DNA of 64,000 nt from Fidelibacterota bacterium (GTDB lineage Bacteria; Fidelibacterota; UBA8477; JABMPR01): NCBI GenBank assembly GCA_013203185.1, contig JABMOS010000145.1, positions 8,294 to 72,293 of the forward strand. The letters run 5' to 3'. Position 1 is the stretch's first letter. Every line of letters starts with the position of its first letter. Positions 35,156 to 45,249 of this stretch are shown here, piece after piece. The notes below the pieces were generated by a model that saw nothing but the letters and a program-made list of their open reading frames with translations, made no database searches and was not told the origin of the DNA. Made by a program: the position numbers and the translations under genes.

Positions 35156-37144
35156 TTATCTCACCAGGAGTAGTTTTGTAAATGCTGTGTGGGACTCAGT
35201 TTCGAGTCTACATAGGTATACGCCTGCCTCAACTGGATGACCCTCTCGGTTCTCGCTGTTCCAGGTAACCACGTAACGACCACTGCTTTGAGAGCTGTTC
35301 AGTAATTGAATCACCTCTCGACCCTGTAGATCAAAAATACTCATTTTAACCGAGGTTTGCCCATCCAGGCTATAGGGTATACTGGTAGATGGATTGAATG
35401 GGTTGGGGAAATTATCCCCTAAGTCAAAGACCAGGGGAATTGCCAGTTGATCCTCGGCCAGCCCCACCACATAGTCTGTGGTTTTCAGAATCCAATTGTC
35501 TGGATCCATGACCAGATTGGTGACGATCTCACCCGTTGGAATCTGCAGATGAAAAGTCATGAATTGCTCGTTAATTCGCAGAATAGTATCAATTACTGAA
35601 GCATTCGTAGTGATCTGAAAATCTACTGGCATATCAAAAGTAATTCCCGTTTGGATAGTCTGAACCAATAAATCATCCCCAGTTTGAGCTCGGTAGGCAC
35701 GATAATTAGGATATGCAGATCCATAAATCCATTGCTGAAAGAATGGATCTAGATCTAGACCACTGACCTCTTCACAAACCATCTGGAAATCTTCCGTCGT
35801 TGCGGTTCCGTACTTGAATTGTGGATCATTGGAATAGGTTTGAAGTATTTCAAAAAAGGTATCATCGCCGACTATGTGCCTAAGCATATGTACTACCCAT
35901 GCTCCCTTATTATAGGTATGCCACCAATCAAATATATTTTCTGTTTCTGTATCCTCCACATAAACAGATCCGTATTGTCGGCTAAGATTTTTAAACGTTT
36001 CCATTTTCTCTATATATCCAGTGGGACCATACCTTTCTTCCCACCATAGTGCCTCAGCATAGCGGGCGAAGCCTTCATTCAGCCAGATATGGTTATAGGT
36101 ATCACAGGTGATCATATCACCATACCACATATGTGCCAGTTCATGACAGACTCTGCGTTCCGTGGGATCTCCCATAGATGTCAGGGTTTGATGCTCCATT
36201 CCAGTACTCGTCCCCCATTCGGCGTGACCATATTTTTCATCCATGAAGGGGTAGGGTCCGAATTGATCCTCGTACAGGGCAAGCATCTCTGGGAGCAGAT
36301 TATAATTCTCCGTCATGTAAGACGGATTCGGGTTGTCGGGATGACTATATGTATAAAAAAGAAGGGGCAAGGTATCGTTATTGGCATCTACATAGATATT
36401 GCCCCACTCATAAAACTCGTAAATCGAAAGTGATACGAGATAGCTGGCGATGGGATGACCCACATGCCAATGCCAGGTTTTAGTGCCATCTCCATTGTCG
36501 GTATCGGAAACCAGGCGTCCATTAGACGCCACTACCATATAATCATCTATGGTCACCACAATATCCGCTGAATCTGCCTTATCACGGGGATAGTCCACTG
36601 ATGGCCACCATTCTCTGGCATTATATGGTTGAGAGTAAGTCCAGATTGCCCGCTGGCTAAATTCATAATCCCAATTGAAACCAGAATCGTCCTGATTACT
36701 TGCTGGACCTGATTCCGAATATATTGCTACTGACATCTGTTGGCCCATAACGGGTGTCTCATTTAGTGGTATGGACAATATGTCATTGAGGTGTGAAAAG
36801 GCCAAAGAATCTCCGTCCAGATACACCGCGGTAACCGTTGTATTACCGACACCCGGACTGTTAGTAGAATAATCCAATTCAATTGTCTCCAGGCTGGTGT
36901 CAACCACAACAAGGTGAAGTAGAAATTCAGAGACCATGGAGGTCGTTGCGATATCCATATCAAAATTTAATCCATAATAAGTGATATCGATTTTCTGCTG
37001 TTCGGAGGTGGGTTGCATGTCTCTAAGAAACTGATCTTGATGGGCATATCCGCAGGGCTTTTCTTCGTCTATAAATGACATTCCGCTGATTGAAACAATC
37101 AATCCCAATATGGCTGATATCTTCTTTAAGCGCTTCTGATTCAT
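35156..37144 (-). CDS. Secreted M1-family zinc metallopeptidase with C-terminal T9SS-type sorting domain
   Basis: Signal peptide. HELAHMWYGD (HExxH) plus WLNEGFA (third ligand Glu). The C-terminal NFPNPFNPSTSIPY...GVYLCRLE...KLLLVR resembles a Por/T9SS C-terminal domain. Confidence 0.85.
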   Translation of the reverse strand: MNQKRLKKISAILGLIVSISGMSFIDEEKPCGYAHQDQFLRDMQPTSEQQKIDITYYGLNFDMDIATTSMVSEFLLHLVVVDTSLETIELDYSTNSPGVGNTTVTAVYLDGDSLAFSHLNDILSIPLNETPVMGQQMSVAIYSESGPASNQDDSGFNWDYEFSQRAIWTYSQPYNAREWWPSVDYPRDKADSADIVVTIDDYMVVASNGRLVSDTDNGDGTKTWHWHVGHPIASYLVSLSIYEFYEWGNIYVDANNDTLPLLFYTYSHPDNPNPSYMTENYNLLPEMLALYEDQFGPYPFMDEKYGHAEWGTSTGMEHQTLTSMGDPTERRVCHELAHMWYGDMITCDTYNHIWLNEGFARYAEALWWEERYGPTGYIEKMETFKNLSRQYGSVYVEDTETENIFDWWHTYNKGAWVVHMLRHIVGDDTFFEILQTYSNDPQFKYGTATTEDFQMVCEEVSGLDLDPFFQQWIYGSAYPNYRAYRAQTGDDLLVQTIQTGITFDMPVDFQITTNASVIDTILRINEQFMTFHLQIPTGEIVTNLVMDPDNWILKTTDYVVGLAEDQLAIPLVFDLGDNFPNPFNPSTSIPYSLDGQTSVKMSIFDLQGREVIQLLNSSQSSGRYVVTWNSENREGHPVEAGVYLCRLETESHTAFTKLLLVR

Positions 37145-44080: not shown

Positions 44081-44104
44081 GAAGCCCCTGAGATCAGGGG
44101 CTTC
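44081..44104. terminator. Bidirectional intrinsic-terminator-like hairpin between convergent nagB and the selenoprotein gene
   Basis: GAAGCCCCTG-AGAT-CAGGGGCTTC, a perfect 10-bp stem. Confidence 0.6.
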
Positions 44105-44138: not shown

Positions 44139-44984
44139 TTATTTAAGTAGAAGTATTTTCCTCGTATCAAATCCCTTAGCGTGCGTAAGCGTGGCGATGT
44201 AAACACCACTGGTCAGCTCAGCGCCAGCTTCATCTCGAGAATTCCAGACAACCTGGTGTGAACCGGCTGACATATTTGATGCAATCAATTGCCTCACTTG
44301 ACTTCCCATTCCATCAAATATTGTTAACACCACTTGACCTGAATGAGGCAGTTCAAATTTGATCTGGGTCTGAGCGTTAAAAGGATTGGGGAAAACTGAT
44401 ATCAACTGGTGTTTTTCAGGAGATTCTGTTTCATTCTCTGTTCCCGTCACAGAAAGCAAATCATCCAGAACAGCCGTAATCGCAGATTCATTAAACCCAA
44501 TTGAGCTATACCGAACGACGCCATCGGTATCTATAATAGTATTTCTGGGGATTGCCCCAGTACCAAAATCGCTCCAAATATGGGAACCACGATCATCTGC
44601 TATGGGATAACTGGCACCGAGATTTGCCCAGGCCTGGCATGTCAGTGAGTTAAAGTCATTTCCCAGAGAAATTATTAAAAGTCCCTCATTGGCTCTTGAT
44701 TGATGAAAATCTTCCAGGTGCGGAACCTCCGCACGACAATTCCCTCACCAGGACTCAAAAAAGTTGAGCCAGACGACACGAGTCGCCTCCCCTGACTCTG
44801 GTACCAATAAATCTCCCAGGGATATATTCCCAGCATCATTAGCACAGTAACTCACAACCTTATCCCGGGTAGTTTGACTAATGGTCTGTCCTACACTGTA
44901 TTGAGCAAAAGCCGAAGCTGTTAGTACATATATACTTAAGGTAAGGGCAATGATGAGGTGCCCAGTTCTTTTTTCTCTTTGCAT
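44139..44984 (-). CDS. Candidate selenoprotein: secreted TlpA/ResA-like thioredoxin-fold oxidoreductase with W-U-G-N-C redox motif (Sec at codon 80, UGA 44747..44745) and C-terminal T9SS-type sorting domain
   Basis: ORF 44745..45029 ends ...VVWLNFFESW-TGA. The same frame continues with no further stop (GNCRAEVPHLEDF...IPRNTIIDTDGVVRY...) into ORF 44139..44459 (FPNPFNAQTQI...VYIATL...KILLLK). The UGA sits exactly where TlpA-like proteins have the first Cys of WCxxC. A hairpin lies 10 nt downstream. Start chosen at ATG 44984 (MQREKRTGHLIIALTLSIYVLTASAFAQ signal peptide). Confidence 0.7.
44718..44747 (-). promoter_or_regulatory. UGA plus SECIS-like stem-loop
   Basis: Minus strand reads UGA-GGGAAUUGUC-GUGCGGA-GGU-UCCGCAC: a 10-nt spacer, a perfect 7-bp GC-rich stem and a G-containing apical loop starting 17 nt after the UGA. 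Confidence 0.55.
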
Positions 44985-45249
44985 AAAAACTCCACATAAA
45001 TATTTAATTGGAATAAAATGGATTTCCATCTTCTCGTTTTAATGTAAGCCCTCTTTGAACAGAAAGTGTCAACTCAATGACAGTTCAGAAGGCGACACTG
45101 AGAATAAACGCCCGATACTGGTGAATGTTCTAGATGCGGGAGAAACCTAAAAAGATTAGATTATTTAGCTATTTGACTCTCTTATTCCCTTAATTCAATA
45201 ATATTTTAGGATATATTGCTCCGCACTTAAAATATTTCAGGAGATTAAA

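Follow-up and report, generated by a model that had tools for sequence, protein, structure and literature searches.

A predicted selenoprotein with a TlpA/ResA-like domain and a type IX secretion sorting tail, interrupted by an in-frame UGA codon in a marine Fidelibacterota genome

Do two short open reading frames (ORFs) in the genome of a marine Fidelibacterota (Marinimicrobia/SAR406) bacterium represent separate genes, or are they the two ends of one gene whose internal UGA codon is read as selenocysteine (Sec)? The question arises from a locus on the minus strand of contig JABMOS010000145.1, of which a stretch of 64,000 nucleotides (hereafter the window; all positions refer to it) was analysed. 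An initial annotation of this DNA had joined the two ORFs into an exported TlpA-like selenoprotein ending in a sorting domain of the type IX secretion system (T9SS). The locus is very probably a real selenoprotein gene, and it is likely, with somewhat less assurance, that it encodes one functional selenoprotein with a working T9SS sorting tail. Sec insertion at the UGA is predicted from the conservation of this codon, from the Cys found at its place in homologous proteins and from an RNA hairpin located shortly downstream.

Reading frame and conservation of the UGA codon

The minus strand frame running from position 45029 to 44139 has a TGA at 44747-44745 as its sole stop. The upstream ORF (45029..44745, 94 aa) terminates with ...VVWLNFFESW (...ATRVVWLNFFESW) directly before this TGA, and exactly 95 open codons (44744..44460) separate the TGA from the listed ORF 44459..44139, which has 106 aa, starts with FPNPFNAQTQIKF and ends with ...TRKILLLK followed by TAA. 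Coordinates and codon count proved to be as given in the initial annotation. The joined product reads FFESW-U-GNC-RAEVPHLE at the junction and includes IPRNTIIDTDGVV downstream, the conserved strand of the fold that had also been pointed out. Its true start is most likely the ATG at 44984 and not position 45029, because all 20 complete orthologues (20/20) begin at the equivalent Met with near-identical length and a GGAG sequence is found 5 nt upstream. These starts and lengths match the conceptual product of 281 aa that had been proposed.

Orthologues were identified in 32 loci, corresponding to 23 distinct gene sequences with 48-85% identity, from metagenome-assembled genomes (MAGs) of Marinimicrobia and the Fibrobacteres-Chlorobi-Bacteroidetes (FCB) group and from metagenomes; their DNA was drawn from 11 species-representative genomes and 18 metagenome contigs. 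TGA occupies the equivalent codon in the 23 distinct genes (23/23), none of which has a further stop or a frameshift, and the N-terminal half is kept in frame across the orthologue DNA. That 32 loci share this TGA at the equivalent position is far beyond chance. The dN/dS ratios (Nei-Gojobori method), which are rough values because synonymous sites are near saturation, are ~0.12 for the mature part before the UGA, 0.11 for the thioredoxin part after it and 0.16 for the tail. These estimates show purifying selection acting on both sides of the UGA.

A Cys aligned with the UGA, which the initial annotation had suggested looking for, is present in the structurally characterized ResA protein (see below), in distant homologues and in full-length two-domain homologues. 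The distant set comprises 16 TlpA-like genes retrieved by a metagenome scan, in which the codon facing the UGA is TGT or TGC (INFFATWCPPCRAELP). The wider family was explored by an exhaustive HMMER search using the post-UGA fragment as query. Among its members are full-length homologues (259-280 aa) that share the three-part architecture of the protein studied here and have a WCxxC motif. Five of them (P0048, P0062, P0068, P0075 and P0123) are 35-38% identical to it, and four others (P0056, P0131, P0144 and P0172) are more classical.

Twenty-seven close homologues (50-85% identity) came from a protein search, those with names originating from Marinimicrobia or FCB-group MAGs. All 27 correspond to the post-UGA part only (154-197 aa) and have inconsistent M, V or L starts. 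The gene is annotated in relatives as two pieces of 79 aa and 192 aa, and in one metagenome contig (L061, 2896-3741; JGI 3300032524, Ga0335111_1200986) as ORFs of 79 aa and 106 aa with the central 285 nt, most of the thioredoxin domain, left unannotated. In the public records seen, the gene is either cut in two or survives only as a fragment called "T9SS type A sorting domain-containing protein"; the expectation that standard gene callers would split or truncate it holds for public annotations everywhere. A pseudogene, or two small genes for which the TGA is a true stop and the downstream segment is untranslated or codes an independent T9SS-tailed protein, would agree with these annotations, all of which treat the gene in this manner, and with the presence of a decayed paralogue copy at one orthologous locus (L011), which shows that decay occurs in the family. 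This explanation is nevertheless effectively refuted. The TGA is kept down to 48% identity in genes free of any other stop or frameshift, coding constraint runs on past it with dN/dS values of ~0.11-0.12 on its two sides, and no orthologue has a real gene end at the Trp that precedes it. A stop at this position would split one thioredoxin domain within its active-site motif, the downstream "starts" vary among gene calls, and structure prediction does not give the downstream fragment a thioredoxin fold of its own: in the AlphaFold2 (AF2) model of the post-UGA fragment the thioredoxin part has a predicted local distance difference test (pLDDT) score <50, with no confident thioredoxin domain.

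The decayed partial copy of L011 (...QLVWLTFFGSWRSSCWAAVRS*) is found ~250 codons upstream of the gene and in the same frame. It has an Arg codon in place of Sec and resembles the subfamily of L059 (ELVWLTFFGSW-U-SICWWEVP). A separate observation concerns the origin of the orthologues: the MAGs of L001 and L009 are titled "uncultured Lentisphaeria bacterium" though their orthologues are 65-74% identical and placed in the same synteny frame. The other MAG titles are Neomarinimicrobiota, and the Lentisphaeria bins may be mislabelled.

The hairpin downstream of the UGA and the decoding of Sec

A hairpin of the Sec insertion sequence (SECIS) type begins 10 nt past the UGA, within the interval 44700-44750 where the initial annotation had recommended searching for one. 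It has a 7-bp stem, a GGU loop and a bacterial SECIS (bSECIS) spacing of 17 nt, and its fold has a free energy of -9.9 kcal/mol (z = -4.6). The bSECIS model described in a 2026 review (PMC13188914) requires a loop of 3-9 nt, a stem of 4-16 bp, a distance to the UGA of 16-37 nt, a minimum free energy <= -7.5 kcal/mol and a G within the first two loop positions, the pattern N1-G-[G/U]-N-N2 being frequent. The hairpin satisfies all these constraints and its A-GGU-U sequence fits the N1-G[G|U]-N-N2 pattern.

The pairing of the stem is conserved and its bases covary. Stem cells are paired at 99.4% in the 23 orthologues. A C-G pair is swapped to U-A in L002/L018 and again in L028/L029, two groups that are 48% identical and each nearer to sequences keeping C-G; the 5′ change of the swap replaces Ala by Val and is compensated by the synonymous change CCG to CCA. 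Synonymous diversity is 0.52 gene-wide and 0.00-0.18 at codons +4 to +11, the lowest-diversity seven-codon windows of the whole gene being those that cover the hairpin. A six-fold degenerate Arg codon inside the hairpin is always CGT in the orthologues. When the set was extended with six Sec-form homologues from other subfamilies, 97% of the cells were paired and double changes were found at 4 of the 7 pairs (14 cells). None of 500 shuffles matched the observed covariation score of this extended set, and sliding the pairing partners reduced pairing to 29-67%.

These features are consistent with the following decoding scheme. When the ribosome reaches UGA codon 80, the hairpin 10 nt downstream would act as the SECIS and recruit SelB-GTP-Sec-tRNA(Sec); Sec would be inserted and translation would continue for 201 codons. 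Some observations speak against such decoding. None of selA, selB or selD was detected in the window (52 ORFs searched with NCBIfam and Pfam) or in the fetched flanks, and ARAGORN found no tRNA, including tRNA-Sec, in the window and none in 24 related loci. No Rfam SECIS match was obtained, either with gathering scores over the whole window or with E <= 10 near the UGA, where the sole match was a chance snoRNA; Rfam covers bacterial SECIS poorly. Sec use is documented in the phylum: Peng et al. (2016) reported two SAR406 single-cell genomes as Sec-utilising, one having 1 known selenoprotein and the other 5, and listed an "orphan" SelD for three further SAR406 genomes.

Decoding of the UGA as another amino acid would accommodate the fact that Sec machinery was not directly seen in the window and flanks. 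The codon could be translated as Cys or Trp by a UGA-reading tRNA, or as Cys through SECIS, SelB and a selC-like tRNA. SECIS/SelB-dependent Cys insertion by a selC-like tRNA is reported for some bacteria. One public prediction (P0073; L052 944-1807 / L053 787-1650) indeed renders the homologous UGA as Trp, giving the active site WWPNC. This record is a wrong-code artefact that also passes the true TGA stop found after ...LLK, its product extending five residues beyond it. Of the 53 window ORFs, 16 end at TGA, and among these are ackA, ygeY, hisD and proC in full length (profile matches to the last residue); the codon is an ordinary stop in the window, which argues against a code change. The residue aligned with the UGA in homologues is the catalytic Cys and never Trp, the hairpin fits the SelB-type SECIS model and the phylum has documented Sec users. 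Decoding as Cys or Trp is on these grounds very improbable, and Sec remains the preferred assignment. A six-frame scan of the 64-kb window gave no convincing candidate for a second TGA-joined ORF pair.

A second trait related to selenium was noticed elsewhere in the window. The plus strand segment 7829-29474 is a purine-catabolism neighbourhood of a type that NCBIfam links to selenium-dependent molybdenum hydroxylases. It codes for adenine deaminase, an xdh-like Mo subunit, SsnA, YgeY (687 bits), YgeW, two pyridoxal phosphate enzymes, XdhC/XdhB-like subunits, YgfK (941 bits), an 8-oxoguanine-deaminase-like protein and a second FAD/FeS/Mo set. Such Mo-hydroxylase gene clusters are known to go with selenium use. 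The window showed no yqeB, yqeC or selD. From this cluster, the genome would appear to have a second use for selenium; this is no proof of Sec decoding.

Domain organization, export and genomic context

The precursor is composed of a putative signal peptide, a thioredoxin-fold domain and a C-terminal tail (Table 1). Residues 1-27, which have a basic n-region and a hydrophobic core and end with AFA before Q28, are predicted, by inspection only, to be a type I signal peptide. The residues at -3 and -1 are small in all orthologues (for example AFA, ALG, AYG or AFG, then QY), Q28 being nearly invariant and Y29 invariant in their alignment.

For profile searches the joined product was scored with U written as C. 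Residues 67-166 match Pfam Redoxin (PF08534; 52.3 bits, cut-off 26.6) and residues 51-159 match AhpC-TSA (PF00578; 42.1 bits, cut-off 26). The best PDB sequence match is ResA 4nmu (4.4e-13), whose segment FWGTWCKPCEKEMPY (WCKPC) aligns opposite FFESW-U-GNCRAEVPH; U80 therefore takes the place of the nucleophilic Cys, the first of the two. The cis-Pro loop is also retained (GAIPRN versus GPLPTS in ResA), with P146 opposite the ResA Pro, and both the W-U-x-x-C redox motif and P146 are invariant among orthologues. Pfam scores and ResA alignment agree with the TlpA/ResA-type WCxxC context, with its first Cys replaced by UGA, that had been recognized initially. It follows from the ResA alignment and the signal-peptide reading that the N-terminal "ORF" encodes the signal peptide together with the beginning of the thioredoxin domain (its N-terminal hairpin and first strand), and that the post-UGA part completes this same domain.

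Two additional Cys residues, C47 (44846-44844) and C116 (44639-44637), are invariant in all orthologues. Their equivalents are present in the nearest Cys-form homologues, the five listed above, which share a Cys at "VCANG" and at "YSCxxW", and not in classical TlpA-like relatives. A structural disulfide between C47 and C116, or a role of the two as a second redox pair, is possible. The NCBIfam equivalog scores are all under their cut-offs (ResA 52/170, DsbE 41/123, TlpA 18.6/230 and StoA 29.8/210 bits), and by such a wide difference that the product shares the fold without being an orthologue of ResA, DsbE, TlpA or StoA. The nearest NCBIfam selenoprotein model, NF041054 (ResA-like WAxxUGC selenoprotein), scores 23.1 bits for a cut-off of 300. 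A peroxiredoxin identity was also considered and ruled out, the motif being W-U-x-x-C and not T-x-x-C/U.

A short linker joins the thioredoxin domain to the tail, which the initial annotation had described as a T9SS-type domain. This assignment is borne out by NCBIfam TIGR04183 (T9SS type A sorting domain; residues 197-278, 35.2 bits, cut-off 23), and Pfam supports both the TlpA/ResA-like fold and the tail, the latter through FlgD_ig (residues 205-269, 37.1 bits, cut-off 27). In the AF2 model the tail is a confident beta-sandwich (pLDDT 80-94) for which the Foldseek matches include FlgD Ig-like domains, PorZ and PorU. A homologous tail terminates an M1-family aminopeptidase encoded 7 kb away (35156-37144, minus strand), whose C-terminus matches FlgD_ig and Por_Secre_tail. 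The two tails are 38% identical over 84 residues (E = 4e-20), supporting a shared sorting module. No T9SS core genes are annotated among the 52 window ORFs (NCBIfam and Pfam).

Is the tail a working T9SS signal? The protein could be a genuine selenoprotein that stays in the periplasm, is reduced by a CcdA/DsbD-type system and uses its tail as a binding or anchoring module. The classical relatives among the PDB matches are periplasmic reductants, and a periplasmic location would solve the problem that a surface-located enzyme has no obvious electron donor. Pfam Por_Secre_tail (PF18962; residues 197-277) scores 26.2 bits, 0.8 under its cut-off of 27, and the generic FlgD_ig is higher; the top Foldseek matches are likewise generic Ig-like domains. 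Literature searches gave no paper tying Marinimicrobia to T9SS. The TIGR04183 score is, on the other hand, clearly above its cut-off, the tail is strictly C-terminal with an end of the K-x-L-L-L-K type, and structural matches include PorZ and PorU. The same tail is carried by the M1 peptidase of the window, by a GH57 enzyme and by many large multi-repeat proteins, which is the pattern expected for a sorting module. We therefore regard a purely periplasmic enzyme as unlikely and favour a tail functioning in sorting. The protein would then be exported by the Sec translocon through its cleavable signal peptide and fold in the periplasm, where the type IX secretion system would take over, remove the tail and either anchor the enzyme on the cell surface or release it. 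In catalysis, U80 would be the nucleophile and form a selenenylsulfide with C83. The activity is most likely a thiol-disulfide (selenenylsulfide) exchange or reduction acting on an extracytoplasmic substrate.

Table 1. Features of the selenoprotein locus (positions in the window).
Feature	Positions	Strand	Details
Complete selenoprotein gene (predicted)	44139..44984	-	ATG 44984-44982; in-frame Sec-UGA; TAA 44141-44139; precursor of 281 aa
Shine-Dalgarno-like GGAG	44990..44993	-	5 nt 5′ of the ATG; read from sequence
Type I signal peptide (predicted), residues 1-27	44904..44984	-	MQREKRTGH / LIIALTLSIYVLTAS / AFA; by inspection; predicted cleavage before Q28-Y29
TlpA/ResA/DsbE-like thioredoxin-fold domain, ~residues 30-180	44445..44897	-	W79-U80-G81-N82-C83; cis-Pro P146; C47; C116
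Sec codon UGA (predicted), residue 80	44745..44747	-	TGA in 23/23 distinct orthologues; Cys codon or Cys in homologues
Bacterial SECIS-type hairpin GUGCGGA-GGU-UCCGCAC	44718..44734	-	5′ arm 44734-44728; loop 44727-44725; 3′ arm 44724-44718
T9SS type A C-terminal sorting domain, residues 197-281	44142..44396	-	Ends ...SGVYIATL...TRKILLLK; TIGR04183, FlgD_ig, AF2, Foldseek
Terminator-like hairpin GAAGCCCCUG-AUCU-CAGGGGCUUC then UUUGG	44081..44104	-	35 nt past the stop; read from sequence

The gene is bordered by a convergent nagB and a divergent AsnC/Lrp regulator gene, with GlnII also nearby, and this order is conserved in relatives. These neighbours were considered as redox operon partners and discarded: they are syntenic and do not suggest a redox link. 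The terminator-like hairpin is GC-rich, has 10 bp and is positioned between the selenoprotein gene and nagB. It was not listed in the consensus scan because its T-run is short. The consensus scan of the minus strand scored no sigma-70-like promoter.

The wider family and comparison with known systems

The HMMER search yielded many further "truncated" proteins, and all those whose DNA was obtained are Sec forms, with motifs such as ASW-U-GSC (L058), GSW-U-SIC (L059), TTW-U-GAC (L060) and ASW-U-TVC (L054). At the orthologous loci L054 and L055 the same gene is found as a Sec form in the former and as a Cys form in the latter. Adjoining this paralogue of the studied gene, on its upstream side, both loci (L054 487-2502; L055 1633-3648) encode a larger selenoprotein in which a propeller of LVIVD repeats is combined with a TlpA-like domain (W-U-P-V-C) and a T9SS tail. 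It has ~670 aa in L055, the L054 copy being partly read, and gene callers likewise cut it at the UGA.

It is plausible, and we propose it tentatively, that the gene studied here is one member of a broad and unrecognised family of type-IX-secreted selenoproteins of marine FCB bacteria, found at the surface or released, with TlpA-like UxxC domains that switch between Sec and Cys and including the ~670-aa LVIVD fusion. If so, selenium would let a redox enzyme act extracellularly with no protein reductant dedicated to it, on targets that could be, for example, thiols, polysulfides or peroxides in oxygen-minimum waters. Should the tail work as in Bacteroidota, these would be the first selenoproteins tied to type IX secretion and would place redox enzymes where the periplasmic DsbD/CcdA system cannot supply them with electrons, raising the question of what reduces them. 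The Sec and Cys forms, with their swap between orthologous genes, offer a natural experiment on the benefit of selenium to an extracytoplasmic thiol oxidoreductase. Since these genes are systematically split or misannotated, in one record with the wrong code, the selenoproteome of an abundant ocean phylum is under-counted, as is its redox capacity at the cell surface.

The initial annotation had considered a T9SS selenoprotein unusual. This holds for the T9SS tail, which is the new element; exported selenoproteins, the UxxC TlpA-like ones among them, have been catalogued before. In ocean metagenomes no selenoproteins are commoner than those with a thioredoxin fold and a UxxC motif, and the families described include a TlpA-like "thiol-disulfide isomerase-like" group (cd02966), "Prx-like 3" (pfam08534) and a UGC-containing TlpA, so that the replacement of Cys by Sec is in itself known. 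Literature searches retrieved no paper linking selenoproteins with type IX secretion. Together with the lack of a match to an NCBIfam selenoprotein model and the naming of the public fragments after their T9SS domain, this points to something not yet described: the T9SS tail, and the wider Sec/Cys family that bears it, appear to be unreported.

The protein shares with the marine UxxC TlpA-like families its marine origin, the thioredoxin/TlpA-like fold, Sec at the first position, widespread Cys homologues and the fact of being known from sequence alone. Compared by description only, it differs from them in that no sorting domain, signal peptide or surface location is mentioned for those families. 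In the UGC-containing TlpA and NF041054, too, the fold is TlpA/ResA-like and the redox motif contains Sec, this motif being U-G-C in their case and U-x-x-C here. Bacillus ResA, Bradyrhizobium TlpA, DsbE/CcmG and the C-terminal domain of DipZ have in common with it the fold, the W-C-x-x-C motif followed by E-x-P, the cis-Pro loop and export. Unlike those proteins it has Sec for the first Cys, the extra pair C47/C116, a T9SS tail instead of a membrane anchor and a gene context without cytochrome c or copper-chaperone genes. The resemblance to T9SS type A cargo of Bacteroidota lies in the signal peptide and in the ~85-aa C-terminal beta-sandwich with its TIGR04183 match and PorZ/PorU-like structure. 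It differs from that cargo in being a selenoprotein oxidoreductase and in its Fidelibacterota host, in which T9SS function is presumed.

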